Positions 16,812-50,853 of a stretch of DNA of 64,000 nucleotides are shown here, in pieces. The notes beneath the pieces are model-generated. The model did no database searches, was not told where the DNA came from, and was given only the letters and a program-made list of their open reading frames with translations. Source of the stretch: an uncultured bacterium (GTDB taxonomy: Bacteria; Omnitrophota; Omnitrophia; Omnitrophales; Aquincolibacteriaceae); NCBI GenBank assembly GCA_964482725.1, contig CAYZYT010000001.1, positions 270,912 through 334,911 on the forward strand, in the 5' to 3' direction. Both the position numbers and the translations under genes were made by a program. Position 1 is the first letter of the stretch; each line of letters starts with the position of its first letter.

Positions 16812-16880
16812 GTCATCCCCGGAAGCTTTCATCGGGGATCTAGCAAATGGATTCCCGACAAAAGCATTCGGGAATGACAT
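16812..16880. repeat. copy 1 of ~66-bp bipartite palindromic MITE-like element (termini GTCAT...ATGACAT)
   Basis: gtcatccccggaagctttcatcggggatc + ggattcccgacaaaagcattcgggaatgacat; two hairpins. Near-identical copies at 31120-31187 and 50790-50853. Confidence 0.6.
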
Positions 16881-16912
16881 AAGAGCAGCCCACCCCTCTG
16901 ATCTTATAAAAA

Positions 16913-17833
16913 CTACGATCCTTTAGAAACCGAGTATTTGGTGCCGCTATCCGTATTCGTTTTTCTTTCGCCAGAATGATCTTTGGCGGAATTTGCCGTA
17001 GAAGTCTGAGCCGCATCCTGAGCGCCAAGCGTACTTGTCTGATTCATACTATCCACATTATTGAGAAGATCTATCAACGACTGAGTGTCGATCTGTCTCT
17101 TCGGTAAAGAAGAAGGGGTCGCCTCCGTTCCCGGGCCCGCTGTTCCGGGGCCGGTCACCTTCTGTCCGAGTGCCACGGCAATCCGGTTCAGATCGGCTTC
17201 CGAGACCTGGAACACCGCCACTGGTGCGCTGTTGGGTCCGTCAACGATTGTCGCGTTCCCGGCGGTATCGATATCCACCCCCACGACCTCACCATTCACG
17301 ACATTGGTCACATAAATACGCCCCACACCCACGGGGCCCAAAAGCACGACGGTCGTTTTCTGACCGTCAATGATCCCCGCGACATTGGTCCCGCGAAAGC
17401 CGATGGACCCGGCCGGAAGATCAACCGACATGTTCTCCGATTTTTTGTGCGCCACCTTGCCGGAAACGACACGGAAGATCCCCTTCACCATGCTCGCCTT
17501 GACCTTTCCGTCATCATTGGCCGGGTCATACACGAATTCATCCACCGTGATCGCGCTTAAAGCTCCGAGCGTGAAAACCGTCTGATCCAGAAGCAGCACC
17601 TGCAGCTGTCCATCTGCCCCCGTTTCGATCTTATCGCCCATAAACACCGGGTCCCCGCTTTTCAGGGGATGTGAAACTTTAGACGGAGGCGTCGTCGCCT
17701 TGACCTCGCCTTTCACCGCCGCCGCGACCCCTGCCTGCGTCAATTCCGCCGGAGCGGCATACAAAGCTCCCACAGCTCCAAGCATCATAAGAACAGCGAT
17801 GGTCCCTATCCCCAAAAAACATTTCTTTGTCAT
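16913..17833 (-). CDS. secreted FecR-domain protein
   Basis: Signal peptide MTKKCFLGIGTIAVLMMLGAVGALYA. FecR-like core (GDKIETGADGQLQVLLLDQTVFTLG...IDEFVYDP). Paralog of next gene. Confidence 0.6.
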   Translation of the reverse strand: MTKKCFLGIGTIAVLMMLGAVGALYAAPAELTQAGVAAAVKGEVKATTPPSKVSHPLKSGDPVFMGDKIETGADGQLQVLLLDQTVFTLGALSAITVDEFVYDPANDDGKVKASMVKGIFRVVSGKVAHKKSENMSVDLPAGSIGFRGTNVAGIIDGQKTTVVLLGPVGVGRIYVTNVVNGEVVGVDIDTAGNATIVDGPNSAPVAVFQVSEADLNRIAVALGQKVTGPGTAGPGTEATPSSLPKRQIDTQSLIDLLNNVDSMNQTSTLGAQDAAQTSTANSAKDHSGERKTNTDSGTKYSVSKGS

Positions 17834-17935
17834 AAAAACTCCTCGCATGAGCGTGGGAAACCAACAAACGTTCAAGGTTCGGAAAGTTTAAAGGATCCAT
17901 CCTTCAAACAGGCATTGTCCATTATTTTCGTATTA

Positions 17936-19339
17936 TTAATAACCGTTTACGATACGATTCTGGGGAGGTGTCGGCTCCGGCGTCAGCCCCGGGCTTCGTG
18001 TTCCTTCGGTAGCTCCACTCCCCTTGTTACGGTACATAGGATCCTTATTATCATAAACAATAGAAGAAAATGCATTTTGCGCAACCACGCCGTTGGCATT
18101 TTGAAGCGTAATCGTCGCGCTGATATTGCTAGGGTTAGGGATACCGCTACCGATCGCGGGCGAAAAGACAGCGTAAGAACCCGCACCGCTATTGAAAGAA
18201 ACCGGCGCGATTTCGACATAGCCGGTATTAATATTACCGCCGGCCTCGCGCGTATCAATATTGATAAAAGATTTCCCGCCCCCTATGGTTTTCGTCCCAA
18301 AATTAATGTCTATAGAAGTGGACACCGTTCCGACATGGGGTGAGTAGGTACTACCGTTTGTCACTGTTTGAATAAATTCCCCTGTCCCAGCATAATGATA
18401 CTCACCCGTCGTAATCCTGGAAAGTTCGGAAATCAGCGTAGTGCCATCAGCAATGCTCCCGCTCTCCGCAGCCGCATCCTGGGCGGCCGTCGTGGAGGTA
18501 TCATTATTCGTATCACTCAGACCGTTCAGGCCCTGGGCCGTATCGCTGTTCTCTCCCGTCATGAAAGTGCCTTGTCCGGATTCGTCCGTCGCGGAGCCGC
18601 CGCCTTCTCCCGAATTGCTTCCCCCGCCTGACGGAGCGAGCCCCGCCGTAAGGCCATTGATATCTGCCTCGGAAAGCTGAAATGCGCCCGAGACACTTCC
18701 GTCCGCGCCCACCGTCACGCCAAAACCTGTATGATCGACATCCTGCTGGCCCGAATTCTGCCCGTTCCCTGTAATACTGAAACTCCCTGGCTGCGCTCCC
18801 GCGTTGTTATTAGCGCCGGGACCCAAAAGCGCCGCAAGCGAGGGCCCTCCTGGGACCACATTCCCGCCCACGATCGTTCCGCGAATACCGATCGTCGCCG
18901 TCGGAAGTTTGAGCGTCACATTGCTCGGTTTCTTGGCAGCGATCTTTCCGGACACATAGCGAAAAACACCTTTCGCAATGCTGGCCTGAACTTTCCCGTC
19001 CTGGGTCTTGGGATCGTAAACAAATTCATCGATCACGAGTAGGGTATTGGGGCCGATCGTGAAAACGGTCTCGTCCAGGAGCATGATCTGTAGATTCCCC
19101 TGCGCGTCCGTACTGATCTTATCCCCCAGGTACACCGGCTGACCGCTTTGCGCGATACGCCCCACCTGGCCCGGCATCATCAGCTCCACCTTGCCTCTCG
19201 CCGCCGCCACCACGCCGATCTGCTCCATGCCGGCAGACACACCCAGAGGCGCCGTCACGGCAACGGGCATTTGGGCAAAAACAGCCGGAGCGGAGAGGAT
19301 CATAAAGAACGCTAAAAAAGAAGCGAGTGTCTTTTCCAT
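17936..19339 (-). CDS. secreted FecR-domain protein with long Gly/Ser/Thr-rich beta-rich C-terminal region
   Basis: Signal peptide ...SAPAVFA-Q. Same FecR core as 16913..17833 (GDKISTDAQGNLQIMLLDETVFTIG...IDEFVYDP). 467 aa. Confidence 0.6.
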   Translation of the reverse strand: MEKTLASFLAFFMILSAPAVFAQMPVAVTAPLGVSAGMEQIGVVAAARGKVELMMPGQVGRIAQSGQPVYLGDKISTDAQGNLQIMLLDETVFTIGPNTLLVIDEFVYDPKTQDGKVQASIAKGVFRYVSGKIAAKKPSNVTLKLPTATIGIRGTIVGGNVVPGGPSLAALLGPGANNNAGAQPGSFSITGNGQNSGQQDVDHTGFGVTVGADGSVSGAFQLSEADINGLTAGLAPSGGGSNSGEGGGSATDESGQGTFMTGENSDTAQGLNGLSDTNNDTSTTAAQDAAAESGSIADGTTLISELSRITTGEYHYAGTGEFIQTVTNGSTYSPHVGTVSTSIDINFGTKTIGGGKSFINIDTREAGGNINTGYVEIAPVSFNSGAGSYAVFSPAIGSGIPNPSNISATITLQNANGVVAQNAFSSIVYDNKDPMYRNKGSGATEGTRSPGLTPEPTPPQNRIVNGY

Positions 19340-19342
19340 AAA

Positions 19343-20761
19343 TTAGAACTCCATTCTTTTTGTTAAGAGGCCTTCGATCTTGTTGTTCGTGTAGGTGTAA
19401 TTCGTGATGCTGGAAAGCGCGTGGTAATATTCGTAAGAGATCGTAAAAACGATATCCTTGAAGGGTTTGGGAAGGATCTTTCCGACCAGAAGCGTCTCGA
19501 GTGGCGCGCCATACGTCCCGCGGTACCGGACCGTGTTGTCGTGACGGTGCATGCTGGAGACGGAAAATTCCGGCGATTGATACCGGTCAAAATACGCACT
19601 CAGCGTGTTGATCACGAACTGGCCCTTCGGCCAGATCCAGGTATGGGTATTGTTCAGGCTGATACGGTCGTAAGCATAGTAATTCTGCTTGGCGAGTTTT
19701 TCCGAATAACCGATGTTCGAGCTCCATCGCATGGTCGGGCTCAACATGTAATTGGCCCCCCACACGTGATCGAACTCCGGACCTTTGCGGTTATAAGAAT
19801 CCGTGTTCTCCGAGACATTCATAAAATCCTGACGCTCGATCCTGAAATCATAGAACACATTGAGTTTTTTGGTAAGATCGCGGTCGAAAAGGAAATTCCC
19901 GCCCTGGCTCCTGAGAAAACTCTGGTCGGACAGGAACAGGTAAGTGTAAAAATACGACGGCGTAAAATTGATGTACTTGCCTTTATACGTCCCGCCGAGC
20001 TCGAACTGGAAAGAACCGAGGTTCAGGGAATGCACATTCGTTTGTTGCTGGAGATAGTGAGTAAAATTCCCGAAAAGGCTGTGCCCGGCCTGAAAACCGA
20101 GATCATGCGTGACATCCAGGCTTGCCACATTCAGAAAGTGAGTATCCGCCCGTCTGACATTCGACCCCTGAGTATCAAGCGCCGTATCAAAGAACAGCTG
20201 CTGTTTGGAATGCGGTGAGGCATTGCGGTTCGTGTCATACCCCCAGCCGGCGCTTTCACGAAGAGTGTAGTGGGTACGCCGCTTCTGGTACTGAATTTTC
20301 TTCTGATAAAAATCGACTTCCCGCTTGATCTCGGGAGGCAGGGCCAGGGTCTTCAGGACATTGAGTTCTTTTTGCACTTCGTTGAGGCTGTCCAAACGAT
20401 ACAGGACCACGGCATACAGCAGCCGGACATCGATCAGGTTCGGATTGATAAGCAGGATCCGTTCCAAGGTCGAAGAGGCGCCGAGCAGTTCGTTCTTCGA
20501 GATCTGATTTTGGGCATAACGAAAATTAAGCTCAATATTATCAGGATCCTTGAGGACATCCTGATAAGTAACGCCGGTCCTGAGCTGATCCGCTTTTTCC
20601 TTTTCCTGGGATTTATCAGCCGTCTTGGCGATCTGGTTCACCCCTCGAGTCTCCCGGCGAACGTTTTGAACCTCATTGGTGACATCTTCGGAAAAACCGG
20701 AAGGGATCGCTGGAAAAACAAAAACCGCAAGGACAAAACAGGCGAGGATCTTGAATTTCAT
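19343..20761 (-). CDS. outer-membrane protein: N-terminal TPR-like region + C-terminal beta-barrel (Slam/DUF560-like architecture)
   Basis: Signal peptide, TPR-like helical N-terminal ~150 aa, alternating-hydrophobic beta strands, C-terminal Phe (…TKRMEF). First gene of 3-gene minus-strand operon. Confidence 0.55.
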   Translation of the reverse strand: MKFKILACFVLAVFVFPAIPSGFSEDVTNEVQNVRRETRGVNQIAKTADKSQEKEKADQLRTGVTYQDVLKDPDNIELNFRYAQNQISKNELLGASSTLERILLINPNLIDVRLLYAVVLYRLDSLNEVQKELNVLKTLALPPEIKREVDFYQKKIQYQKRRTHYTLRESAGWGYDTNRNASPHSKQQLFFDTALDTQGSNVRRADTHFLNVASLDVTHDLGFQAGHSLFGNFTHYLQQQTNVHSLNLGSFQFELGGTYKGKYINFTPSYFYTYLFLSDQSFLRSQGGNFLFDRDLTKKLNVFYDFRIERQDFMNVSENTDSYNRKGPEFDHVWGANYMLSPTMRWSSNIGYSEKLAKQNYYAYDRISLNNTHTWIWPKGQFVINTLSAYFDRYQSPEFSVSSMHRHDNTVRYRGTYGAPLETLLVGKILPKPFKDIVFTISYEYYHALSSITNYTYTNNKIEGLLTKRMEF

Positions 20762-20873
20762 GAGAGACGGAGTCCCCTTTCTTTATAGGACGTTGAGGCT
20801 CGGCACCTGGAAAACGGGCTACAATTTGCGGTAGTTTACCCCCGTCGCCTCAGAAAAGCAAATCACAAAAAAC

Positions 20874-20960
20874 GGACTAGGGACCCGAGACTGGAGACCA
20901 GAGTCAAAACAAAATCAACCCAAAGCATCATTTTGTCTGTAGTCTCTGGTCTGTGGTCTC
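20874..20960. repeat. second inverted heptad-array element (GAGACNN)x~4 ... (TNGTCTS)x4
   Basis: cggacta gggaccc gagactg gagacca ... ttgtctg tagtctc tggtctg tggtctc. Same architecture as 4011-4092. Intergenic between OMP gene and helicase gene. Confidence 0.55.
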
Positions 20961-21029
20961 GTTGGCAGCATGATCCACATCCTCGCAATTTAAGACATTC
21001 GTTCCTGAAAAATCCGTTATAATGCCCTT

Positions 21030-22997: not shown

Positions 22998-23004
22998 CCC
23001 TACA

Positions 23005-23760
23005 TTACATCATGCCCTTTAAAAGATCGTCTATCTTTTCCAAAAGATCATTTTCGTTGCGATGGAGGATGATCCGTTCCCCTGAAAAAGTTTTTAGAGC
23101 CTCCCCGGAAAGTCTCTCTTCGCAGTAAACAAAAAAAGACACCTCGCTAAGCAAGGGGTGCCCCTCAAGTTTCTCTTTGAGTTTCCGAGCGTCGACAAGG
23201 CTTTCATCCTCCCAGAATTGGCAAAAAACATGGGCGGCATTGAGCTGCTTTGTTAGATGAAAGGCATCGTCCTCGTTCAGAGCGACAAAGGCCTGAAAAC
23301 CACGCTCTTGGATCGCCGTTTGGATCTTACTGAGGAGATCCTCCTGAACGCCAAGGATCACCACGCGCTTGGAACCATCCGGGTTCTGCTCCGCACTTTT
23401 CCACAAGAGCCTTTCTATTTTAGAGAGTAAGGCCTTAATCTCGTACGGTTTCGGCATGAACTCCACACTATTAAGATCCGTAAAAAATTCCCGCATACTC
23501 GCTTTTGCTGACATAGCAAGCACCGGAATCTTCCGTAAGGCTTCAATCTCGCGGATCTTTTGAAGGGCTTCATAGCCGGTCATTTTCGGCATCATCACAT
23601 CCATCACAATAAGATCCGGTTTTTGGGATTGGGCCATGGCCAACGCCTCGGCTCCATCCTGGGCCGTACAAACCTCATAGCCAGACGCCGAGAGTTGCTT
23701 GGTCAGTAGCGCCACAACGGTCGGGCTATCATCTACAACAAGGATCTTTCTAGCAGGCAT
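23005..23760 (-). CDS. response-regulator receiver (REC) protein with C-terminal degenerate pseudo-receiver-like domain, paralog 1 of 4
   Basis: REC motifs KILVVDDSP...DLIVMDVMMPKMTGYE...IPVLAMSAK. C-terminal ~125 aa with conserved CQFWED / YCEERL. Start taken at MPARKILVVDD by analogy with paralogs. Confidence 0.75.
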   Translation of the reverse strand: MPARKILVVDDSPTVVALLTKQLSASGYEVCTAQDGAEALAMAQSQKPDLIVMDVMMPKMTGYEALQKIREIEALRKIPVLAMSAKASMREFFTDLNSVEFMPKPYEIKALLSKIERLLWKSAEQNPDGSKRVVILGVQEDLLSKIQTAIQERGFQAFVALNEDDAFHLTKQLNAAHVFCQFWEDESLVDARKLKEKLEGHPLLSEVSFFVYCEERLSGEALKTFSGERIILHRNENDLLEKIDDLLKGMM

Positions 23761-23846
23761 GATCTTGTCAGCTCCTTTTTCATCATTCACTTAAAAGCAT
23801 CCACTCGACATGGGACCCTCGCGGACAAACAGCGGCAGGCCTAACA

Positions 23847-24599
23847 TTATTTTTCTTTAAAAAGCTCGCCTATCTTCTTCAAAAGATCCGCTTCATTGCG
23901 ATGAGACACAACCTGATCCTCCGTAAAAGTTTTTAGAACCTCTCCGAAAAGTCTCTCTTCGCAGTAAACAAAAAAAGATACCTCGCTAAGCAAGGGGTGC
24001 CCCTCAAGTTTCTCTTTGAGTTTCCGAGCGTCGACAATACTCTCATCCTCCCAGAATTGGCAAAAAACATGGGCGGCATTGAGCTGCTTTGTGAGATGAA
24101 AGGCATCCTCCTCATTCAGCGCCTTAAAAGTCTGGAACCCAAGCGCATTGACCAACATTTGAAGTTTATTGGTAAGAGCCTCCTGGACGCCAAGAAACAC
24201 CACTCTCCTAGAACCATCCGGATCCCTCTTTTCGCTCTCCCAAAGAAGCCTTTCGATCCTGGCGAGCAAGGTCCGGATCTCATACGGCTTCAGCATGAAC
24301 TCTACGCCGTTAAGGTCCGTGAAAAAAGCCCCCATGTTCTTATTGGCGGAGAGGATGATCGCAGGAATTTTTCGAAGCTCCTCCGCATCGCGCACTTTCT
24401 GAAGGACTTCATAACCGGTCATTTTCGGCATCATGACATCCATCACGATAAGATCCGGTTTTTGAGCTCTCACTGCGCCCAAAGCCTCGGCTCCGCCCGC
24501 GGCCGTACAAACCTCGTAACCCGACGCCATGAGCTGTTGGGTCAGGGTAGCTACAATCGTCGGGCTATCATCCACGACAAGGATCTTTTTAGAAGGCAT
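23847..24599 (-). CDS. REC + pseudo-receiver protein, paralog 2 of 4
   Basis: Same architecture. DNA 23941-24120 is ~95% identical to 23101-23280 (offset 840 bp). Confidence 0.75.
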   Translation of the reverse strand: MPSKKILVVDDSPTIVATLTQQLMASGYEVCTAAGGAEALGAVRAQKPDLIVMDVMMPKMTGYEVLQKVRDAEELRKIPAIILSANKNMGAFFTDLNGVEFMLKPYEIRTLLARIERLLWESEKRDPDGSRRVVFLGVQEALTNKLQMLVNALGFQTFKALNEEDAFHLTKQLNAAHVFCQFWEDESIVDARKLKEKLEGHPLLSEVSFFVYCEERLFGEVLKTFTEDQVVSHRNEADLLKKIGELFKEK

Positions 24600-24688
24600 G
24601 TCTTTAAAAACTCCTCATGAATCATTACTTCGAACGGCTTGGTCAGAAGGGGGTCGACGCGAAAAAACAGCTGCGGCCTAGTACCGTG

Positions 24689-25441
24689 TTACATTTCCTT
24701 AAAAAGGTCGGCAAGCTTTTCCAAAAGCTCGTTCTCATCACTGTAAATAATGACCCGTCCGTCTGCAAAAGTCTTCCGAGCCTCGCCGGAAAGCCTCTCT
24801 TCGCAATAAACATAAAAGGGTACTTCGCTAAGCAACGGGTGCCCTCCGAGCTTTTCTTTGAGTTTGTGAACATCGCCCCCTCCCGCATCCTCGCAGAATT
24901 GGCACAAGATATTCCCGGGATTCAGCTGCTGCGCCAGATGGAAGGCATCCTCCCCGTTCAGCGCAATAAAAGCCTGAAAACCAAGCCCCTGGATCGCCAT
25001 CTGGAGCCTTTGGGTAAGAGCCTCTTGGCCCCCAAAAAGCACCACTCGCTTGTAACCATCCGGGCTCTGCTCCTCGCTTTCCCAAAGAAGCCTTTCTATC
25101 CTGGAGAGTAAGATCCGGGTCTCATACGGCTTCGGCACAAACTCTACGCCATGAAGGTCCGTGAAAAATTCTCGCATACTCGGCTTTGCTGAAATAATAA
25201 TCGCGGGAATTTTCCGAAACGCATCCGTTTCTCGGATCTTTTGGAGCGCTAGATAGCCGGTCATTTTCGGCATCATCACATCCATCACAATAAGATCCGG
25301 CTTCTGCGACTGCACCATCACCAAGGCCTCGGCTCCATCCACGGCCGTACAAACCTCGTAGCCGGACGCAGTCAGCCGCTTGCCAAGGATCGCCACAAGA
25401 TTCGGATCATCATCCACCAGAAGGATCTTTTTGGATGCCAT
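24689..25441 (-). CDS. REC + pseudo-receiver protein, paralog 3 of 4
   Basis: MASKKILLVDDDP...DLIVMDVMMPKMTGY; C-terminal CQFCED...YCEERL. Confidence 0.75.
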   Translation of the reverse strand: MASKKILLVDDDPNLVAILGKRLTASGYEVCTAVDGAEALVMVQSQKPDLIVMDVMMPKMTGYLALQKIRETDAFRKIPAIIISAKPSMREFFTDLHGVEFVPKPYETRILLSRIERLLWESEEQSPDGYKRVVLFGGQEALTQRLQMAIQGLGFQAFIALNGEDAFHLAQQLNPGNILCQFCEDAGGGDVHKLKEKLGGHPLLSEVPFYVYCEERLSGEARKTFADGRVIIYSDENELLEKLADLFKEM

Positions 25442-25460
25442 GCCTATTTAAAACTCCGCT

Positions 25461-26213
25461 TCATGACTCCTTTAAAAACTCGCTTATCTTATTTAAGAGC
25501 TCTTCCTTGTCGCGATACATAATGATCCGCCCCTCCACAAAAGATTTGCGAGCTTCAACCACGATTCTCTCTTCGCAATAAACATAAAGAGGCACCTGTT
25601 TTAGCAGAGGATGGGTCGCCAGTTTTCCTTTGAGCTTTTGGGCGCTCAGGATGCTTTCATCCTCCCAGAACTGGCACAAGATATTCCCGGGGGTCACCTG
25701 CTGCGCCAGCTGGACAGCATCCTCCTCGTTCAGTGCGATAAAAACCTGAAAACCGAGCGAACGGGCCAGCATTTGGATCTTATTGGTAAGAACCTCCTGG
25801 ACTCCCAAAAGCACCATCCGTTTTGAACCATCCGGATTCTGCGTTTCGCTTTCCCACAGAAGCCTTTCCACCTTGGACAGAAGTACCCGAGGATCATACG
25901 GTTTGGGGACAAAATCAATAAAGGGACGGTCCTTAAAAAATTCCCGCATACTTCCTTTGGCTGAAATAATGATCACCGGGATCTTCCGCCATTCATCCCG
26001 CTTGCGGATCATTTCAAGGACCTCATAGCCGGTCATCTTCGGCATAAGGACATCCAGAATAATAAGGGCGGGCTTTTCCGATCCCATCTTCGCGAGAGCT
26101 TCTTCCCCGTTCATGGCGGTGGAAACCTCATACCCGGAAGACATGAGTCGCTGTGCCAGGACGGCCACGATATCCGGGTCATCATCCACTACGAGGATCT
26201 TTCTAGATCGCAT
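25461..26213 (-). CDS. REC + pseudo-receiver protein, paralog 4 of 4
   Basis: MRSRKILVVDDDP...LIILDVLMPKMTGYE; C-terminal CQFWEDES...YCEERI. Confidence 0.75.
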   Translation of the reverse strand: MRSRKILVVDDDPDIVAVLAQRLMSSGYEVSTAMNGEEALAKMGSEKPALIILDVLMPKMTGYEVLEMIRKRDEWRKIPVIIISAKGSMREFFKDRPFIDFVPKPYDPRVLLSKVERLLWESETQNPDGSKRMVLLGVQEVLTNKIQMLARSLGFQVFIALNEEDAVQLAQQVTPGNILCQFWEDESILSAQKLKGKLATHPLLKQVPLYVYCEERIVVEARKSFVEGRIIMYRDKEELLNKISEFLKES

Positions 26214-26263
26214 GTTTTTCTAAAACTCCGTTTTCACTTCCCCCAGGAAAATACAATGAAATC

Positions 26264-26293
26264 ATAATAAGCGTACTTGGTCTATTTTACAAG
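26264..26293 (-). promoter_or_regulatory. candidate sigma70-type promoter (minus strand) TTGTAA-N17-TATTAT upstream of REC paralog 4
   Basis: Read on reverse complement of 26264-26293 in the 113-bp gap between the AddB-like gene and the REC array. Confidence 0.3.
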
Positions 26294-26326
26294 CGACTGT
26301 TTCTCCCCTTTCACTCGATCTGTTTC

Positions 26327-29482: not shown

Positions 29483-29561
29483 CGGATGGCGGAGGGAGGA
29501 TGGCGTTTTCCGAAAAACAGGGAAAGCTAGGCGATATCCGCCCTCCTCCCTCCGCCATCCG
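29483..29561. other. large GC-rich stem-loop (18-bp perfect stem, 43-nt loop) between queD and the AddB-like gene
   Basis: cggatggcggagggagga ... tcctccctccgccatccg. No U-tract after it on either strand, so not a classical intrinsic terminator. Confidence 0.35.
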
Positions 29562-31119: not shown

Positions 31120-31187
31120 CGTCATTCCCGCGAAAGCGGGAATCCAGAAAGAGTCTGGATCTCCGACAGAAACATCCGGGGATGACA
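31120..31187. repeat. copy 3 of bipartite palindromic MITE-like element
   Basis: gtcattcccgcgaaagcgggaatcc + ggatctccgacagaaacatccggggatgacat; hairpin order inverted relative to copies 1 and 2. Confidence 0.6.
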
Positions 31188-35868: not shown

Positions 35869-36864
35869 TTACGAAGAAGGCAGAGAATGAAGCCTTTGCT
35901 TCAAAAGTTTTTGATCGATCAGTTGGGTCTTGTAGGTTGCAACCTTAATGGGAGACGCCGCTTTGCTGACGGCAATTCTCACCACCTCGTCATTCTTGGA
36001 TTTGCAGAGGATAATCCCCACCGACGGATTCTCTGGCCCAAGTTTCGCTGTTTCGTCCAAGACCGAAAGGTAAAACTGCATCTTCCCTACATATTTCGGC
36101 CTGAATCCTCCGATTTTCAATTCAACCGCTACGAAACACCGCAAAAGACGGTGAAAAAACAAAAGATCCACGAAGTAATCTTCGCCGCCAGCGGTCAGAC
36201 GGTATTCCTCTCCGGCAAGCGTGAAGTGGCGTCCAAACTCCAAAAAAAAGTCCCTAAGCTTCCTCAAAATCGCTTTCCTCAACTCTTTTTCACCAAAAGG
36301 ATCCTTCACATCCAAGAAATCGAGAACGTATTCATCCCGGAAATGCTCCAAAACATCCGGAGGATTTATCTGTCGGGATTTGGTAAGATCCTTTTTCGCA
36401 CAACGGGTCCGTTCAAATAGAGACGAATCTATCTGCCGTTCCAATTCTCGCCGACTCCAACGCTCCCCGGCACAGGTCCTCAGATAAAACTCCTGTTCCT
36501 CCGGTATCCGAGCCTGATGCAGAATAATTAGATTATGAGACCACGGTATTTCTGCAACCAGGGGTTGCAGTTTTGACCGGCCTTCATAAGTTTCATACAA
36601 TTTTTTCATCTCCCAAAGATTTCGGCTTGAGAACCCTTTCATGAAAGGAAAATCCGCTCGAAGATCCCCGGCAAGCATTTCAATAACCCCTTGTCCCCGT
36701 TTGGAAGTCTCGACCCAACCATGAAGTTTTTCACCAATATCCCAATACAAAGCAATAAGCTCCTTATTGACAGCTTTCAGCGCTGCGTATTGCGCCTCCC
36801 GGATCCGCGATTTGATGTCCTTCAGAAGTCCGGCATAGTGTACCGATAGCTTGTGGGTTTTCAT
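35869..36864 (-). CDS. DUF1016 / YhcG-family PDDEXK nuclease-like protein
   Basis: Core DLLFFHRLLRCFVAVELKIG...GKMQFYL with N-terminal helical domain. Homologous (~35% by eye) to 52342..53358. Separated from htpX by 1 bp. Confidence 0.7.
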   Translation of the reverse strand: MKTHKLSVHYAGLLKDIKSRIREAQYAALKAVNKELIALYWDIGEKLHGWVETSKRGQGVIEMLAGDLRADFPFMKGFSSRNLWEMKKLYETYEGRSKLQPLVAEIPWSHNLIILHQARIPEEQEFYLRTCAGERWSRRELERQIDSSLFERTRCAKKDLTKSRQINPPDVLEHFRDEYVLDFLDVKDPFGEKELRKAILRKLRDFFLEFGRHFTLAGEEYRLTAGGEDYFVDLLFFHRLLRCFVAVELKIGGFRPKYVGKMQFYLSVLDETAKLGPENPSVGIILCKSKNDEVVRIAVSKAASPIKVATYKTQLIDQKLLKQRLHSLPSS

Positions 36865-41409: not shown

Positions 41410-41411
41410 CC

Positions 41412-42689: not shown

Positions 42690-42716
42690 AAAAAATTACC
42701 GGACACCGTCCGGTAA
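42690..42716 (-). terminator. intrinsic terminator (9-bp GC stem ttaccggac/gtccggtaa followed by T-run on minus strand); also 3' of pfk on plus strand
   Basis: Perfect hairpin ttaccggacaccgtccggtaa at 42696-42716 with aaaaaa (T6 on minus strand) at 42690-42695. Confidence 0.55.
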
Positions 42717-42732
42717 GCAGGGACAATCTTCG

Positions 42733-42947
42733 ATTCCCTCCAAGATCAACAGGGACAGGTCTGCTTTGCACTCCTAGACCAGTCCCTAAAAAAAAGTGAC
42801 AGTCACCAGTAAAAGTGACTGCCACCAACAATGTTAGGCCTGTTCGAAGTCAACAGGGACAGGTCTGCATTGCACTCCTAGACCAGTCCCTTATTCCCTC
42901 CAAGACCAACAGGGACAGGTCTGTTATTCCTTCCAAGACCTGTCCCT
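42733..42947. repeat. hairpin-repeat family 1, locus A: 3 units of ~56 bp (spacer attccctccaagaYcaac + hairpin agggacaggtctg-N13-agaccWgtccct)
   Basis: Hairpins at 42751-42787, 42855-42891, 42911-42947. Lies between autotransporter stop (42962) and the terminator, i.e. in its 3' UTR. A 66-bp insert with small palindromes gtgacagtcac / gtgactgccac between units 1 and 2. Confidence 0.7.
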
Positions 42948-42961
42948 GAAAAAACGAGGTG

Positions 42962-45900: not shown

Positions 45901-48900
45901 TCCCCTTGGCGCCATCGATGTTCACTTCACTTAAAGCCGCATCACTCGTACCAATAGCATCCTGGTAAGCGTCTTCAATAAGCTCTCCTGTAACCGTGGC
46001 GTTGCCGTTAAAATTCACGATCCCATAGCCGTCGTACTCGGTCGTGATGCCGCTTTCCCCGATATAGGCGTCCGCATTAAATGTGGCTTCTGCGTCTTCC
46101 CTCGTGCTGCTGAATTTCAACTCATCCACATAAACATCACTATTAAAAGTCGTTTGGCGATCCGCGCGTATCCTGCCAAGATATGCATCAGCTGCGCCGA
46201 CCTGGCCGTCAATGGTCGCATCGCGCTTAAAAGCGACGATCCCATGCCCGGCCCAATCAGTCGTAATACCACCTTCCCCGATATAAACCACCGCTGCGTC
46301 CTTGAACGTAACCGTTGAATCGTCCCCGGGGCCTCCCATTCCTTCAAATGCCAACTCCTCAATATAAACAGGGCTATATAACTTGACGTCATAATTACTG
46401 TCAGCAGCCTGTGTAACAATAATCTTGGAAAGGGACGCTCCCTCCTCGCCAACCTGCCCGGTAACTTCACCATCCCCTTCAAAAGTCAGCGTACCCTGGC
46501 CGGAAGCAGTGACGTTTCCGTCAATATCAACGCCATTGGCCAATTTCAATACGGCATCACCCGAAAAGTTGTACAGGGGTGAATCCTGGGTCGCGGTCAG
46601 ATAAAGCGTCCCGGCATTGATCGTGGTCCTCCCGCTGTAAGTATTCTCATTGGTGAAGACCACTTCGCCCGTACCGGACTTGGTGAGCGAACAAGAAAGT
46701 GAGTCCGTGTCGTAATCTTCAATGAGGGAATTGACAGTGAACGTGCTGCCTGAAAAATTGGTCAGGATCAACTCCCCGCCGTCGGTAGCCGCGGTCAAAG
46801 TCCCGACCCCGCCCTCGGATCCCGTGTCACCCAACGTCAGGGCGGTCGAGAGAGAACCTGCGAGAATGCCGCTTGTTTGCAACGTGTAGCCATCAAAGTC
46901 GACTGTCACCGGTGCATCTTCGGCGCTCTGGTTGAGCGTGTTGATGGGGGTCAGATCATCAAGAATGTACGCTCCGCCCTCGGTGATTTGGACATTACTG
47001 GTCGCATCACTAGGGCCGATGGGGGTGTAGCCCGTGTACGCCACGATATTGCCGTCTTCATCGACAGTCGCCCAATCTGTGCCATCTACGGTGGCCCAAG
47101 CGCCGAGGATGCCGTTGACATTTTCCCGGGTGGTCATGATCGAGTTGTACTCATCATCTTGTGTCCCGACAAAATTGATCGTCGCGCCTGTGTTGCGTTC
47201 GATATTTCCAAGATCTAAGCCGAGAGAATTTTCATCGTTCGAAAGCTCTATCGTCGAAGCGCCACTATTGAGTCTCAATCCGTCGAAATCCTGATAATTA
47301 TTGTCAGAAGATGATCCCGTGAGAAGCAGCTTTCCACCCCAGAGCCCTAAGGATGACTCCGCAGAAATGATGTCAACATTCGTAGCCGCCGTCGCGAAAT
47401 CCAGATTCAGCGTGCCCGCGACGAGTCGTGTGTCACCGGTATATTCGTTGCTACCGCTTAAAGTGAGCTCTCCCTCGCCATATTTCCCAAGATTATAAAC
47501 CCCGATGATGCCACCGCTGATCGTTAGAGTACTGCCGCTATCCACCTCAATCCCAGCATTGCCGGCAAGCATGATATCTCCAGCCCAGCTGTTGTCCCCG
47601 CTTGCACTATAAAGAGCTCCCTTGGAAAGATCCGAGGGACCGTCCAGCGTCAATGCCACATCGCCAATAACGATATCGTCTCCACCGTTGCTGTCGAGCT
47701 TGAGAATGCCGCCGTCAGCAACCTCAACGCTGTCGGTCTCTCCTAAAGCGTTGCTGTTAGTGATCGTGAGGGTGCCTTCATTTATATAGGTCGCGCCGGT
47801 GTAGCTGTTCTCGCCGTTCAAGATCACTTCCCCGACGCCGGACTTGACCAGGGATGAAGACGCGACCGGATCCGTCCATTCATCGATAGAAGCATTGATC
47901 GTGAGATTCCCGAGAGTGCTGTTATTGATAAGGACTATTTCGCCATTCTCCGTTGCGGCATACAGGGAACTGTCATCTGGTTCCACGCCTAGCGTCAGCG
48001 AACCCATGCCCTCACCAATCATGATGCCATTGACATCAAGAGCCTTTTCGTCTCCTGACGCTATGTCAACAGTCGCTGCGGCTGCTGTATTTTGCAAGAG
48101 AGTATTGATCGTGAACCAATCACTCGGATCCGTAGTCGCTCCCAAAGTGATTGGCGCGCCCGCCTCCCCCGCAGCAGTATTGATTCGAACATTCGTGTTC
48201 GCTCCGTCGGTGATCACACTGCCATAGGCATCGATGTCCGTATAGTCGGTGTAGGCCGTGATATTCGTTTCATCACCATTGGATGAACCAACTGCCCAGT
48301 CGGTCCCGCCGACAGTGGCCCACGCGCCCAGAATGCCGCTTGCAAGGTTTTCCGTGGTGGTGGTCGCGATATTTTCCGCTCCAAAGTTAATCACACCACC
48401 GGTCCGGATAATTCCGTTCATTCGGAGGGTCGTTCCTTCGCCACCATCGTCAATGGTCTGAATGATATTGTTGGCGCCGCCGGTGATCCTGACCGATGCA
48501 ACAGCTTCCACGTATTCGCCGTTGTGGAGCTCAAGCGTACCCCCGCTCATCCACAGATCGCTCCCGGACAATTTCGAAGTCTCGTAGTCGCTATAATCCA
48601 GCTTAAGCGTGCCAGCTTCCAACCAGGAGTTGGCTCCGAAGCTGATATTTTCGCCGCTTAATGTAAACGTTCCCACATCAGCTTGATCAATTTCGCCCTC
48701 GATATCGATGTTTCCAGAAATAAGGGTTTCGCCGGAACCCCAAACGCCCAAAGAATTATTTCCCGAGATATCACCCGTGAGTCTAAGAGTGCTTCCGTAG
48801 TCGGCGCCCACCCACGATGCGACATCCACACCGTCCAACGATATATTGCCAGTCCAGCTGTTGTCCCCACTTGCGCTCCAAAGGGCTGCCCCGTCTACGG

Positions 48901-50698
48901 AAGGCCCATATCCGGAAATTGACAAATCCTTACCCTCTATGGAAATATTGTCTTGAAGATCCAACTCCGCGCCGTAGGCAACCTCAACATCTCCCCCGAT
49001 CCCCAAGGCGCCGTCGCTCGTGGCAACAAGAATGCCTTCATTAATATAAGTCGCGCCGGTGTAGGTATTGTCGCCAGTGAGCGTCAGAGTCCCTTCGCCG
49101 GATTTGGTCAGGCCGATGTCGTCACCGTTATCTTGAATCACCGATCCAATCGTCAGATCGTTGTCTGTGTTGTTCTGGATGATCACCAGGTCTGCACCGC
49201 TGGCTCCTTGAAGATAGCCGCCGGTGATGGTGGAAAGATTATCGCCGACATTGCCGGTAACGAGAATGCCGCCGGAGGAAATGATATTTTCCCCAGTCAA
49301 AGTGAGCGTGTATTCGCCCTCATCGTTGAAGCGCAGGCTGTTAGGCGTGATCTCCCCCTCCGGAGTCTGTGTGCTGTCCACGCTAATGTCTGCACCGTCA
49401 TAGCTGGCCGCATCATCTTCAACGTCTGAGGTGTAGGTATAGTCTCCGGAATCAAGCGCAGTAATTTGCCCGACATCGGCACCGTCTCCCGCGCTAATCG
49501 CCCAGTCCGTCCCACCAACCGTCGCCCAACCGCCCAAAATGGTATTCGCCGTGTTGGCCGTCATAGTCGTAATACCGTTGACAACGGGATCATTCACCAC
49601 GATTGGAAGTGTAAAATCGACCGTGCCGCCGGCATCGCGGCTGATCTCTCCGAGATTCAGTAAAAGATCATTTGCGCCTACACTGTTATCAAGCGTGATC
49701 GCGGAAGCACCGCTATTGATTGTTATTCCATTGTCAAAGGTCTGGATGTTCGCGTCCGAACCGCCTGTGAGCAGCAGTGTCCCACCGTTGAGCTCCAAAT
49801 CCGTACCACTGTCGAGAATGTCATCCTGAACATTGTCCGCCGAAAAATCGAGATTCAGCGTCCCTCTATTGAGCGTCACGGTGTTGGCATCAACCTCATC
49901 TTGAAAAGTTACGGTCGTTCCGCCGCCGCCGTTCACGTTAATGGTCCCAAACTTGTCACCATCCAAACCGATAGCACCTGTGACAGTGGCGTCATTCTCA
50001 AATATTAAAGTTCCGGTATTATCATCGTTATAGGTGTCGACCGTTCCAAGAATGGCTGTGCCGCCGATCCGGATCTCGCCATCGCCCTCAAAATTTAAGG
50101 CATCAGCATAAATGTCCCCGTCGAAAATCACCGTCCCGGCGTTAATGTTCATTTCTGAAAGAGATTGCCCTTCGGCCCACATATCACCAGTAAATGTGGC
50201 AGAGCCCAAAAAATTAAGCGTTCCGGCAGAGCTATCACCGCCAATCAACAGATCCGTAACAAAAGAGTGCCCATCTGCAAGATTCAGTACATTGGCCGCG
50301 CCATCGCCTGTGAATTGCATACGGGAACCCGAAGTAAAATCAATATCTCCATCGATCGTCACGGTAGCAACGCCTGAAGTGCCAAGATCGATGCGATAAC
50401 CCGAGCTATCATCGGTCAAATCTCCGGTAAATGTGTTGGTTCCGGCAAATACCAGGATCCCGTTCTCCCCCGTCAGTGTCGCCGTGCCAATGTTAGGATT
50501 TGTAGCATCCTCCACATCCATCCAGCCGCTTATGCTTGTTGCATTATCTGCGCCCGTTAAGGGCCCAGATGGAACAGGCGACCACGATCCAGCCGTCCCC
50601 CACTCACCACCTGTTGATGTATAGTCTGCCGCAAACGCGGGCGTCACAGGTGAGAAAACGAGGGAAAGGATCGCAACGATGGACAGGAGTTTTTTCAT
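42962..50698 (-). CDS. giant autotransporter (type Va) protein with multiple autotransporter-associated beta-strand repeats and C-terminal beta-barrel translocator
   Basis: Start at MKKLLSIVAILSLVFSPVTPAFA (ATG 50698), not ORF start 50761. At least four PATR-type repeats (e.g. LTKSGEGTLTLTGDNTYTGATYINEGIL). C-terminal ~280 aa barrel ending ...YGTVRYDF. 2578 aa. Confidence 0.85.
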   Translation of the reverse strand: MKKLLSIVAILSLVFSPVTPAFAADYTSTGGEWGTAGSWSPVPSGPLTGADNATSISGWMDVEDATNPNIGTATLTGENGILVFAGTNTFTGDLTDDSSGYRIDLGTSGVATVTIDGDIDFTSGSRMQFTGDGAANVLNLADGHSFVTDLLIGGDSSAGTLNFLGSATFTGDMWAEGQSLSEMNINAGTVIFDGDIYADALNFEGDGEIRIGGTAILGTVDTYNDDNTGTLIFENDATVTGAIGLDGDKFGTINVNGGGGTTVTFQDEVDANTVTLNRGTLNLDFSADNVQDDILDSGTDLELNGGTLLLTGGSDANIQTFDNGITINSGASAITLDNSVGANDLLLNLGEISRDAGGTVDFTLPIVVNDPVVNGITTMTANTANTILGGWATVGGTDWAISAGDGADVGQITALDSGDYTYTSDVEDDAASYDGADISVDSTQTPEGEITPNSLRFNDEGEYTLTLTGENIISSGGILVTGNVGDNLSTITGGYLQGASGADLVIIQNNTDNDLTIGSVIQDNGDDIGLTKSGEGTLTLTGDNTYTGATYINEGILVATSDGALGIGGDVEVAYGAELDLQDNISIEGKDLSISGYGPSVDGAALWSASGDNSWTGNISLDGVDVASWVGADYGSTLRLTGDISGNNSLGVWGSGETLISGNIDIEGEIDQADVGTFTLSGENISFGANSWLEAGTLKLDYSDYETSKLSGSDLWMSGGTLELHNGEYVEAVASVRITGGANNIIQTIDDGGEGTTLRMNGIIRTGGVINFGAENIATTTTENLASGILGAWATVGGTDWAVGSSNGDETNITAYTDYTDIDAYGSVITDGANTNVRINTAAGEAGAPITLGATTDPSDWFTINTLLQNTAAAATVDIASGDEKALDVNGIMIGEGMGSLTLGVEPDDSSLYAATENGEIVLINNSTLGNLTINASIDEWTDPVASSSLVKSGVGEVILNGENSYTGATYINEGTLTITNSNALGETDSVEVADGGILKLDSNGGDDIVIGDVALTLDGPSDLSKGALYSASGDNSWAGDIMLAGNAGIEVDSGSTLTISGGIIGVYNLGKYGEGELTLSGSNEYTGDTRLVAGTLNLDFATAATNVDIISAESSLGLWGGKLLLTGSSSDNNYQDFDGLRLNSGASTIELSNDENSLGLDLGNIERNTGATINFVGTQDDEYNSIMTTRENVNGILGAWATVDGTDWATVDEDGNIVAYTGYTPIGPSDATSNVQITEGGAYILDDLTPINTLNQSAEDAPVTVDFDGYTLQTSGILAGSLSTALTLGDTGSEGGVGTLTAATDGGELILTNFSGSTFTVNSLIEDYDTDSLSCSLTKSGTGEVVFTNENTYSGRTTINAGTLYLTATQDSPLYNFSGDAVLKLANGVDIDGNVTASGQGTLTFEGDGEVTGQVGEEGASLSKIIVTQAADSNYDVKLYSPVYIEELAFEGMGGPGDDSTVTFKDAAVVYIGEGGITTDWAGHGIVAFKRDATIDGQVGAADAYLGRIRADRQTTFNSDVYVDELKFSSTREDAEATFNADAYIGESGITTEYDGYGIVNFNGNATVTGELIEDAYQDAIGTSDAALSEVNIDGAKGTTVTINGNLWANDVYVGAGILQMNGDLTTTSEETLTFTDDGEVILEDGHTITSNITSQNDNEGTLTFEGYGTVDGQIGNGTDALKLIDLQGGSLTTVAITGDVYATDMYVGAGTLELNGSFYEPGTPNSTLIFTDDGEVILGDNEWIYHPIKTQHDGQGTLTFSGDGVVTKQIGEAADGDISGKYLKAINVTEGGHTVHLGNDIDTVDAPVYDVYVDSLNFTGSGASTSVVFYGDASIGDGGITITSEGADLGKVVFKESATVEGQVGSSDAYLSTVSVHKDTTFNADVYLDYLRLKSSPHGAEERTNPEVTFNDNATIGKAEAPSEESNGIKTDWNIYGSVTFNANATVNGDIGTDSEVLKLVYFNGEDAAVNGDIYAYDAVVGTGTLQMNGDLTATDALYFNGDGFVKMAGGYNITANVSMLTDGTGTLIFEGATILTGDVGGSSGAPKAVNLTGNSDATITGDLHTYNVTVGENTLNVGEEFNLKGGTLGLTIYGASADQNGLVIEGDKTTLEAGSKVHVTVNSGLSIMPGTEFTVIDASSFGVGNIVPTTTSSTRRYKFAASEDSGDLVLTSSNDFAPAPGASGNAAAVAGVLAGITNPGFDMNNVLDMLGGLSDSEYNEALDTMHPDVSSGAAEGSRSLTSQGFTTIGNRLGGARNGGGSGSGVSSGERLDGVGVWMQALGSHIKQDARKGIEGYMGNLFGTTVGADKVLDDHFRAGFAGSFGWARVKSKTAGSPSDDINSYQATIYGSFDSLDLNKARQSGKRSYEAVRSQVENSWYVDGMAAFTQNDYESRREIWVTPTSGRVAKADHAGQQYSTNFETGYKFVFEKTKALEVTPFVSLGYNYLYMNKYKEKGADSLNLTVNGEGFHQLEQGLGTKLAYPLVAKKVGTFIPSAKAAWLYDYIGDRFETTASFAGGGSSFNTQGAKPAKSGMLFGAELAFLNKGNMTMTGNWDIELKDQYMSNTYYGTVRYDF

Positions 50699-50789
50699 GG
50701 GAATCATGTGGGGGAAATCTCCGTTTTGTTTTGAGAGAGAAAGGCTTGCGACTTTTTTCAAAATTGGGGTTGACCCCTATTTTTTCACT

Positions 50790-50853
50790 GTCATCCCCGC
50801 GAAGGCGGGGATCCATGCTCCGGATTCCCGATAGAAGCATTCGGGAATGACAT
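50790..50853. repeat. copy 2 of bipartite palindromic MITE-like element, 92-155 bp upstream of autotransporter start
   Basis: gtcatccccgcgaaggcggggatcc + atgctcc + ggattcccgatagaagcattcgggaatgacat. Confidence 0.6.

Follow-up and report, generated by a model that had tools for sequence, protein, structure and literature searches.

CGTC-tagged REP doublets in an Omnitrophota genome and a putative Ssn-type nuclease partner

Described families of tagged hairpin repeats

The CGTC-1 family of REP units was equated by Di Nocera (2013) with the dRS3 repeats of Neisseria and the RPE-6 repeats of Rickettsia, and also takes in repeats of Sphingomonas, Azospirillum, and Bradyrhizobium (PMC3733652). Its units carry a CGTC tag (variants TGTC and CCTC), an 8-bp stem opening with A-T and T-A pairs, a 4-nt loop, and a 3-nt tail that is mostly CCA, and inverted dimers predominate; across all CGTC REP families loops range from 4 to 5 nt, with exceptional loops in a few species (PMC3733652). 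The CGTC-1 units are intergenic, lie <20 bp from ORF 3' ends between convergent or codirectional genes, and the family was reported from 5 phyla, mostly from Alphaproteobacteria (PMC3733652). No associated protein was described, and in no species was a RAYT flanked by CGTC units; the 3'-proximal bias and the presence of G-T pairs were read as hints of a role at the RNA level (PMC3733652).

The family has since been redefined by Chenal (2025) as NTS or "Ssn-related motif" (SRM), with a 28-nt Neisseria NTS consensus, CGTCATTCCCGCGMAVGCGGGAATCYRG (PMC11893778). The nuclease SsnA, whose gene is flanked by repeats, cuts the NTS in a strand-specific manner and as ssDNA only, not as dsDNA or RNA, and its part in the control of transformation in Neisseria is the sole biological role known for Ssn (PMC11893778). 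Omnitrophota are not mentioned in the text of that study. Here, we compare with these systems three elements in a 64-kb stretch of an uncultured Omnitrophota bacterium (GenBank assembly GCA_964482725.1, contig CAYZYT010000001.1, positions 270,912 to 334,911), referred to below as the window.

Anatomy and family membership of the three doublets

From their sequence, we identify the three elements as inverted doublets of CGTC-1 REP units (equivalent to dRS3/NTS, RPE-6, and SRM) (Table 1). The window contains 6 copies of the 10-mer GTCATYCCCG, no more, and they form three inward-facing pairs; dinucleotide shuffles gave an expectation of 0.54 +/- 0.80, and none of 100 shuffles reached the observed 6. 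Beyond the three doublets no hairpin units were found in the 64-kb window, where a single further match, at 63764, was weak and unrelated. A preliminary description had placed all three copies correctly to within 1-2 nt, and the two hairpins that it assigned to each copy were recovered, arranged in inverted orientation. When the copies were aligned with their flanks, likeness began abruptly at GTCAT and ended at ATGAC; with unrelated flanks, the copies do not form pieces of a longer repeat, and the idea that they could be parts of longer known elements gains no support. The ATGACAT terminus noted earlier is present as sequence but corresponds to the reverse complement of the TGTC tag plus the start of the stem.

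Table 1. Coordinates and composition of the repeat elements in the window (units on the minus strand are given in minus-strand reading)
Feature	Coordinates	Strand	Composition
Copy 1	16811-16879		Inverted doublet
Copy 1, left unit	16811-16842	+	GGTC (variant tag), stem ATCCCCGG/TCGGGGAT, 9-nt loop AAGCTTTCA, tail CTA; long-loop type
Copy 1, right unit	16848-16879	-	TGTC ATTCCCGA ATGCTTTTG TCGGGAAT CCA; long-loop type
Copy 2	31120-31187		Inverted doublet
Copy 2, left unit	31120-31147	+	CGTCATTCCCGCGAAAGCGGGAATCCAG; canonical, 4-nt loop
Copy 2, right unit	31156-31187	-	TGTC ATCCCCGG ATGTTTCTG TCGGAGAT CCA; long-loop type
Copy 3	50789-50852		Inverted doublet
Copy 3, left unit	50789-50816	+	TGTCATCCCCGCGAAGGCGGGGATCCAT; canonical, 4-nt loop
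Copy 3, right unit	50821-50852	-	TGTC ATTCCCGA ATGCTTCTA TCGGGAAT CCG; long-loop type

Each doublet half opens with a YGTC tag, followed by an 8-bp stem (ATYCCCGN) that encloses a loop, and closes with a CCA tail. The tag is YGTC in 5 of the 6 units (one CGTC, four TGTC) and GGTC in the other. All 6 stems follow ATYCCCGN/NCGGGRAT: four, including that of the copy 1 right unit, pair perfectly, one contains a G.T pair (at the stem base of the copy 1 left unit), and one has a single mismatch (copy 2 right unit). The tail is CCA in four units and CTA or CCG in the remaining two. Loops fall into two types, the GNRA-type 4-nt loops GAAA or GAAG of the canonical units (2/6) and a 9-nt loop, with the consensus ATGCTTTTA, that is conserved across the other four.

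Copy 1 is the only copy for which a single long hairpin was predicted as RNA (-45.4 kcal/mol, z = -6.5), and copies 2 and 3 are heterodimers with weaker folds (z = -2 to -4); fold energies across the elements range from -35 to -47 kcal/mol. By the criterion that an atccccg hairpin precedes an attcccg hairpin, the inverted copy is copy 2, not copy 3 as had been proposed, and the reverse complement of copy 2 aligns with copies 1 and 3.

The canonical unit at 31120-31147 matches the NTS consensus at 28/28 positions and also fits the SRM motif, and the unit at 50789-50816 fits the SRM degenerate motif, giving two units where 0.34 SRM matches would be expected in the window (mononucleotide shuffles). 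The four long-loop units match neither the NTS consensus nor the SRM pattern, and the 9-nt loop falls outside both published definitions (CGTC REP and SRM). An Rfam search returned no match at the gathering threshold and none at the elements at E <= 1. The elements share with CGTC-1 REPs the tag, the AT-first 8-bp stem, the CCA tail, the inverted dimers with outward tags, and the position at ORF 3' ends; in contrast to the 4- to 5-nt loops of that family, four of the units here have 9-nt loops. With the Neisseria NTS/SsnA system they share the oriented design of tag, hairpin, and tail (PMC11893778). Unlike the NTS, which form large clusters in Neisseria (PMC11893778), they are solitary inverted doublets, and an ssn gene is without trace in the 64-kb window.

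Distribution, turnover, and small GIY-YIG genes

The elements are not restricted to this window, as had been considered: a genome scan with a loose pattern found them at at least 120 loci in about 12 phyla, the chance level for that pattern being, by our own estimate, roughly 60-70 matches in 596 Gb. Among the matches listed, intact doublets with both hairpins occur in Pseudomonadota, Desulfobacterota, Gemmatimonadota, Planctomycetota, Bacteroidota, and Chloroflexota, as well as in Patescibacteria, Omnitrophota, Elusimicrobia, Melainabacteria, Margulisbacteria, and Leptospiraceae. About one third of the loose-pattern matches, including an archaeal one (L033), lack the inner hairpin arms; such matches represent chance palindromes, partial elements, or variants with diverged stems. 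The family is also present as single units and direct arrays, for example at 6687, 6806, and 6914 of an Omnitrophota locus (L016) and at 4205 of a locus of Desulfosarcina widdelii (L122). With only 29 matching stretches among 2.9 million viral contigs, phages do not appear to be the principal carriers.

Of 228 units taken from 120 other genome loci among the matches listed, 217 had the tag T/C-GTC, with T before GTC in 129 and C in 88. Stem position 3 was T-A in 161 units and C-G in 63, and just 4 units lacked a pair there, which amounts to compensatory covariation. The loop was 4 nt long in 194/228 units and the tail CCA in 150/228, and the 9-nt loop ATGCTTTTA was met mostly in Omnitrophota, the window's own phylum.

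The IspH gene has a match at 100%, and those of its homologues that bear names belong to Omnitrophota. Two of the three positions (copies 1 and 2) are empty in close relatives. The copy 2 site is empty in relatives whose IspH is 89-92% identical, and in place of copy 1, ordinary hairpin terminators occur in relatives whose cyclase is 73-79% identical; in one of them (L130) the terminator is followed by a T-run. Control loci amounting to about 600 kb held 0 units. Empty sites in close relatives imply that an element was gained or lost recently, and presence or absence at orthologous sites in related Omnitrophota suggests recent turnover. Logan contigs (short-read assemblies) from the same strain stop exactly at the element end, ...GGGAATGAC. 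A tRNA scan found no tRNA in the window, hence no tRNA-linked integration site.

Units adjoin genes for small GIY-YIG (Ssn-like) proteins in other genomes. At each of the 7 such loci examined, which include one Omnitrophota locus, units lie no more than about 110 nt away. In Omnitrophota L016, a small GIY-YIG ORF adjoins a long-loop doublet that lies directly upstream of the gene, and in D. widdelii such an ORF is flanked by units on both sides; the ORFs abutting doublets at these two loci match Pfam PF01541 (E = 7.6e-17). Four further homologue contexts (L211/L212, L213/L214, L244/L245, and L246) all had units within the same distance. The unit-flanked genes encode single-domain proteins of ~92-104 aa. 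In the 92-aa L016 protein, Y8, Y19, and E66 have the spacing of Y6, Y17, and E64, the residues mutated in SsnA, and a comparison with the PDB gave only weak UPF0213, Slx1, and UvrC matches. The unit beside this L016 gene and the copy 2 right unit have an identical loop, ATGTTTCTG, and stems that differ at 2/16 positions. GIY-YIG proteins that are 70-80% identical occur in Omnitrophota, a CPR lineage (Wildermuthbacteria), and a deltaproteobacterium. Within the 64-kb window no GIY-YIG gene was found, either by tblastn with three GIY-YIG proteins or by Pfam among about 50 ORFs, and a search in Logan/NCBI for the genome's own ssn gene through the GIY-YIG homologues P0231 and P0199 led in both cases to other samples.

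A proposed explanation, its alternatives, and their bearing on the family

We consider the best explanation overall, at a probability of roughly 0.8, to be that these are CGTC-tagged REP doublets in an Omnitrophota host with a putative Ssn-type partner. Most likely, the elements would be hairpins that an Ssn-type nuclease, encoded at another place in the genome, targets as ssDNA, and they would also furnish mRNA 3' ends with stable hairpins. Judging from the homologous systems of Neisseria and Wolbachia, each unit would fold when the DNA becomes single-stranded during replication, DNA uptake, or repair, and a single-domain GIY-YIG nuclease of ~100 aa, whose gene would lie elsewhere in this genome in a repeat-gene-repeat cassette, would bind the folded unit and cut its strand just 5' of the tag. 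Such cutting is a prediction above all for the long-loop units. The nuclease would be the best candidate for maintaining or spreading the units and for any effect that they have on the recombination of incoming DNA.

The positions of the elements invite a reading at the RNA level. Copy 1 begins 9 nt downstream of the TGA (16800-16802) that ends the cyclase gene, not the 14 bp first reported, and copy 2 lies 11 nt past the stop codon of the nitroreductase gene. If transcribed, these doublets would form very stable hairpins that could block 3' exonucleases or readthrough, a secondary effect proposed from position, as is the plausible role of the elements as terminators or regulatory structures. 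In Escherichia coli, translation and mRNA decay are influenced by REPs located no more than about 15 nt from a stop codon. Copy 3, said to lie in the 5' region of the autotransporter gene, is indeed upstream of it but outside the coding region, beyond the longest possible start (TTG, 50761); it lies between divergent genes, with about 80-90 nt separating it from the likely ATG (near 50700), and the outer end of its right unit overlaps the ATG (50852) of an unassigned 121-aa ORF. Terminator-like sites near copy 3, at 50708 and 50765, are separate hairpins. The preliminary description is supported in that this is a miniature palindromic repeat, dispersed and located at gene boundaries.

It is conceivable, if improbable, that the elements are kept as 3'-end stabilizers, terminators, or translation-coupled regulators and that the link with a nuclease is incidental. 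The short distances of copies 1 and 2 from stop codons, the ordinary hairpin terminators that relatives have in place of copy 1, the strength of the predicted RNA folds, and the E. coli precedent all speak for such a role, as do the 3'-proximal bias and G-T pairs pointed out by Di Nocera (2013) (PMC3733652). Yet no U-tract or T-run follows copies 1 and 2 in the sense direction, which sets them apart from canonical intrinsic terminators, and copy 3 is located in a divergent promoter region rather than at a 3' end. An RNA role also leaves the unpaired, conserved YGTC tag unexplained, accounts neither for near-identical sequence across about 12 phyla nor for the flanking of GIY-YIG genes, and sits poorly with the inactivity of SsnA on RNA (PMC11893778) and the lack of an Rfam family match. 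We prefer to view such a role as a side effect, able to coexist with targeting by an Ssn-type nuclease.

Two further alternatives concern how the elements move. Mobilization by a RAYT, an IS200/IS605-like Y1 enzyme, as for the GTAG REPs of Pseudomonas and E. coli, appears somewhat less probable still than a purely RNA-level function, despite an architecture in common with E. coli BIMEs and Pseudomonas REPINs: tagged ssDNA hairpins in inverted doublets, no target-site duplication (TSD), an intergenic location near ORF 3' ends, presence/absence polymorphism, and one partner gene flanked by repeats. The tag here is YGTC and not GTAG, and the partner would be a GIY-YIG nuclease instead of an HUH/Y1 transposase; moreover, CGTC units were reported to flank no RAYT in any species (PMC3733652), and Pfam found no Y1_Tnp among the window ORFs. 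A Y1_Tnp gene does occur 2.4 kb from the GIY-YIG gene at one locus (L213), but its protein gave 0 tblastn matches in 240 other loci and no CGTC unit was present on the examined side of the gene, whereas units adjoin the gene at 7/7 GIY-YIG loci examined. A classical MITE, that is, a deletion derivative of a DDE-transposase IS with terminal inverted repeats (TIRs), moved in trans and leaving TSDs, is the least credible of these readings. The label "MITE-like" of the preliminary description holds loosely for a small, dispersed, intergenic palindrome with inverted termini and empty sites in relatives, but not in the classical sense: at four boundary offsets in 89 doublets, direct repeats of 2-6 bp stayed at chance level, and among about 50 window ORFs Pfam revealed no transposase. 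Each supposed TIR is instead a self-complementary hairpin with compensatory covariation, which fits recognition of a single-stranded hairpin, and single units and direct arrays exist too (L016 and L122). The cognate transposase and TSDs suggested for the elements were not detected in these searches, and in other genomes the genes that adjoin the units are those for small GIY-YIG nucleases.

A bolder version of the nuclease-target explanation, which we regard as possible though rather doubtful, is that the 9-nt-loop units define a new, Omnitrophota-centered Ssn/SRM specificity class and that repeat and nuclease together form an actively spreading, horizontally transferred mobile system in which the GIY-YIG ssDNA nuclease takes the place of a "transposase." Hints in this direction come from empty sites in relatives whose proteins are about 90% identical, from near-identical units in about 12 phyla, from the 70-80% identical GIY-YIG proteins of the three lineages named above, and from the long-loop doublet immediately 5' of the ssn-like L016 gene.

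These analyses give the elements a precise name in place of that of a new MITE, and with the name comes a testable Ssn-type GIY-YIG partner. Intact doublets extend well beyond the five phyla of 2013, to far more that include Omnitrophota and many CPR lineages. Omnitrophota are a new host, and the 9-nt loop is a variant of an already described and very widespread repeat family; as the published search patterns miss this conserved long-loop subfamily, counts for the family may be too low. Ssn nucleases have been put forward as programmable tools for ssDNA, and a new hairpin/loop specificity class, if confirmed, would be of some practical interest. If true, the interpretation as a spreading system would answer the question left from 2013 of what moves CGTC REPs.

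Three hairpin doublets and other repeats in the window

All three palindromic copies noted in the preliminary description were found in place. The tag-plus-stem 10-mer GTCATYCCCG occurs six times in the window, as three inward-facing pairs (16812/16878, 31121/31186, and 50790/50851), against an expectation of 0.54 ± 0.80, and six was reached in 0 of 100 dinucleotide shuffles of the window. With one mismatch permitted, the extra window matches were scattered and chance-like, and a hairpin-unit scan revealed no further copies in the 64 kb. Each copy consists of two oriented hairpin units placed face to face. A unit opens with the 5' tag YGTC; the arms ATYCCCGN and NCGGGRAT then pair into an 8-bp stem around a loop, and a short tail, in most cases CCA, follows. 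Copy 1, with two long (9-nt-loop) units, folds as RNA into a single extended hairpin (−45.4 kcal/mol, z = −6.5), and copies 2 and 3 are heterodimers of a short (4-nt-loop) and a long unit with weaker RNA folds. When the copies were aligned with 30 nt of flank, likeness ran from GTCAT to ATGAC and ended sharply at the copy edges; the flanks are unrelated, so the copies are not fragments of a longer repeat. Three details of the earlier account changed: the inverted copy is copy 2 relative to copies 1 and 3, not copy 3; copy 1 starts 9 nt past the cyclase stop codon, not 14; and copy 3 occupies a divergent intergenic position upstream of the autotransporter ORF, not the 5' coding portion of that gene.

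Position and fold energy make a putative RNA-level side effect plausible at the cyclase and nitroreductase mRNA 3' ends; the copies have no U-tract, and Rfam and tRNA scans gave no match at any of the three. A small palindrome, TGACCGC-TT-GCGGTCA, spans the cyclase stop codon and the start of copy 1; it overlaps the copy 1 tag and may be left over from an older terminator or represent a target-site feature.

Coordinates of the doublets, their units, and other features (window positions unless a locus is named)
Feature	Position	Detail
Copy 1	16811-16879	convergent CHASE2 adenylate/guanylate cyclase gene on one side, FecR-domain gene on the other
Copy 2	31120-31187	11 nt past nitroreductase stop codon; conserved small ORF downstream
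Copy 3	50789-50852	between 2599-aa autotransporter gene and unassigned 121-aa ORF; ATG of the latter overlaps the end of the copy
Short units	31121, 50790	loops GAAA and GAAG, respectively
Long units	16812, 16851, 31159, 50824	9-nt loop
Palindrome at copy 1	16800-16815	
Second hairpin family, triplet	42747-42956	starts 42747, 42851, 42907
Second hairpin family, triplet	51533-51694	starts 51533, 51589, 51645
Second hairpin family, single copy	53819-53868	
139-nt direct repeat	51406-51544, 53668-53806	
YhcG/DUF1016 PD-(D/E)XK nuclease gene	52342-53358	
Second YhcG paralogue	35869-36864	
Response-regulator genes	23005-26213	
Inverted repeat	29483-29561	between AddB-like helicase-nuclease and PTPS genes
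GIY-YIG gene, L016 (Omnitrophota nzgw330)	7260-7535	minus strand
Long-loop doublet, L016	7558-7626	~20 nt upstream of GIY-YIG start; three-unit long-loop array downstream of gene
Three-unit array, L016	6687-6941	
GIY-YIG gene, L122 (Desulfosarcina widdelii)		unit ends ~10 nt before start codon; doublet ~50 nt past stop
GIY-YIG gene, related contigs L211, L244, L245	3001-3330, 2501-2812, 49-360	repeat-flanked

The window also holds a second, unrelated hairpin repeat family of ~50 nt (CAGGGACAGGTCTGC...TAGACCTGTCCCT) in seven copies, two triplets of which, with starts mostly 56 nt apart, bracket the autotransporter gene region. The 139-nt direct repeats (96% identical) flank a YhcG gene, with family-1 hairpins coming after each repeat copy; repeats, gene, and hairpins may together form a cassette. 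Elsewhere lie four tandem paralogous response-regulator genes (~250 amino acids, period ~840 nt, nucleotide identity 66 to 85%) and a 23-nt inverted repeat (96% complementary, 33-nt spacer), which gives rise to a weak and spurious Rfam match to mir-1249.

Membership in the CGTC-1 repeat family and spread across genomes

The doublets belong to the CGTC-tagged REP superfamily, whose family CGTC-1 is defined by a CGTC or TGTC tag, an 8-bp stem starting with AT, a 4-nt loop, and a CCA tail, occurs mostly as inverted dimers adjoining ORF 3' ends, and has been equated with Neisseria dRS3 and Rickettsia RPE-6 (PMC3733652). CGTC REPs lack an associated transposase, in contrast to GTAG REPs (PMC3733652). 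The dRS3 repeat forms the core of NTS, an oriented 28-nt element (CGTCATTCCCGCGMAVGCGGGAATCYRG), and NTS-like "Ssn-related motifs" (SRM) are found in many bacteria (PMC11893778). With both patterns coded and run over the window, unit 31120-31147 matched NTS exactly (28/28) and unit 50789-50816 matched SRM; the four long-loop units matched neither. We assign copies 1 to 3 to CGTC-1 with a probability of about 0.9. The feature picked out earlier is real; the label "MITE-like" suits it only loosely.

Far from being restricted to the window, the doublet is widely dispersed. A scan of GTDB representative genomes, one for each species, for GTCATYCCCG-N20-50-CGGGRATGAC yielded at least 120 matching loci. 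Both inner hairpin arms were perfect in 78 of the 125 matches listed; the pattern does not demand perfect inner arms, and chance would not yield this. Among the matches listed, intact doublets occurred in Alpha-, Beta-, Gamma-, and Zetaproteobacteria, Magnetococcales, Desulfobacterota (including the complete genome of D. widdelii), Gemmatimonadota, Planctomycetota, Bacteroidota, Chloroflexota, many Patescibacteria, Omnitrophota, Elusimicrobia, a melainabacterium, Margulisbacteria, and a Leptospiraceae MAG, with several cultured isolates among the carriers. Viral contigs contributed just 29 matching stretches in 2.9 million, and ~600 kb of unrelated control loci contained no units. Across 228 units from the matches listed, the base preceding GTC was T in 129 and C in 88, the loop was 4 nt in 194 (GAAA, GAAG, GCAG), and the tail was CCA in 150; stem position 3 was T-A in 161, C-G in 63, and unpaired in four, a clean compensatory covariation.

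Units with 8- to 11-nt loops (n = 27) were found in the window, four Omnitrophota loci (L016, L023, L050, and L090), an unclassified MAG (L063), a Thermodesulfobacteriota MAG (L072), and a Leptospiraceae MAG (L096). Their 9-nt loops share the consensus A-T-G-C-T-T-T-T-A in fixed orientation relative to the tag, and the pair closing the stem may be C-G, A-T, or G-C. Loops this long exceed the 4 to 5 nt listed for CGTC REPs (PMC3733652) and fall outside the SRM pattern (PMC11893778), and the long-loop subfamily is the sole part of the finding beyond the existing literature. At L016, three long-loop units with identical loops (ATGCCGTTA) stand in direct, not inverted, order (spacing 119 and 108 nt) just downstream of a GIY-YIG gene, an array-like arrangement; the window doublets are solitary by contrast.

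Mobility and a candidate partner nuclease

The window belongs to a Candidatus Omnitrophota genome. Its IspH is matched at 100% on a 356-kb NCBI contig and has named homologs (60 to 89% identity) that are Omnitrophota in every case. In relatives with IspH 89 to 92% identical, gene order is kept, the gap from the nitroreductase gene to the small ORF is 17 to 45 nt, and copy 2 is missing from the alignment; relatives with a cyclase 73 to 79% identical carry, at the place of copy 1, an ordinary hairpin terminator directly past the stop codon, followed at locus L130 by a T-run. No units were found in these relatives' loci (~65 kb), and the copies were therefore recently gained in the window's lineage or lost outside it. 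The L130 terminator (GGGGACAGGC...GCCTGTCCCC) is similar in look to the second hairpin family.

Target-site duplications and a cognate transposase had been proposed as things to look for. Across 89 doublets, each compared at four boundary offsets, no duplication was observed, which disfavors DDE-type MITE transposition and fits hairpin-directed processes on single-stranded DNA. Pfam searches of the ~50 window ORFs detected neither a transposase of any kind nor a GIY-YIG protein; GIY-YIG genes lie beside units at other loci. A precedent exists in SsnA, a ~100-aa single-domain GIY-YIG nuclease (cd10448) with a typically repeat-flanked gene, which binds NTS/SRM and cuts just upstream, on single-stranded DNA only and one strand only; in Neisseria, the SsnA/NTS system reduces transformation by NTS-bearing DNA (PMC11893778). 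An IS-like architecture of Ssn and its repeats was raised there as a hypothesis only (PMC11893778).

A motif scan and tblastn on the repeat-pattern loci located small GIY-YIG ORFs directly adjoining doublets in 2 of 120 (L016 and L122), whose proteins matched Pfam GIY-YIG (E = 7.6e-17 and 3.5e-13, respectively) and nothing else notable. The long-loop unit beside the L016 gene and the right unit of copy 2 have an identical loop (ATGTTTCTG) and stems differing at 2 of 16 positions. The catalytic residues Y8, Y19, and E66 of the L016 protein are spaced as Y6, Y17, and E64, shown to be essential in SsnA (PMC11893778), which weakly supports an Ssn-like identity, since GIY-YIG folds in general share this spacing; a PDB search returned distant relatives only (UPF0213, Slx1, and UvrC). 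Four more gene contexts of homologs (contigs L211/L212, L213/L214, L244/L245, and L246) all had units within ~110 nt, most on both sides. Taking the Omnitrophota nuclease gene together with the presence of an Ssn-type nuclease in 81% of genomes with >200 SRMs (PMC11893778), we consider it moderately likely that the window's genome encodes such a nuclease acting on these units; the long-loop units may be among its substrates, and Ssn may be what spreads the repeats. In L211, L244, and L245, a type I restriction-modification methylase gene precedes the GIY-YIG gene and a specificity-subunit gene follows further downstream; L211 and L244 also carry a LexA-like gene upstream of the methylase gene. 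GIY-YIG proteins 70 to 80% identical to the Omnitrophota one (hits P0122-P0240) include those of Wildermuthbacteria (CPR lineage; 78%) and a deltaproteobacterium (70%), an unusually high cross-phylum identity that suggests horizontal transfer of a nuclease-repeat cassette.

The repeats also leave their mark on assemblies. Independent Logan short-read assemblies of the same strain all stop ~78 nt past the nitroreductase gene, and the two contigs read (L001 and L002) end exactly at ...GGGAATGAC, the final base of copy 2, as expected from the effect of a multicopy repeat on de Bruijn assembly. Contig L214 opens with the first base of a unit; contig L212 breaks off 68 nt past its gene, at the unit position in the matching NCBI contig L211. 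The L016 protein has ~8000 database homologs (E ≤ 1e-10), many on contigs just 0.4 to 1 kb long, as expected if flanking repeats break assemblies. It follows from these contig ends and short contigs that the repeat family breaks up metagenome assemblies and probably keeps ssn genes out of sight in MAGs. Copies 1 to 3 add a new host and a variant loop to a known repeat family, for which a partner nuclease has recently been identified.
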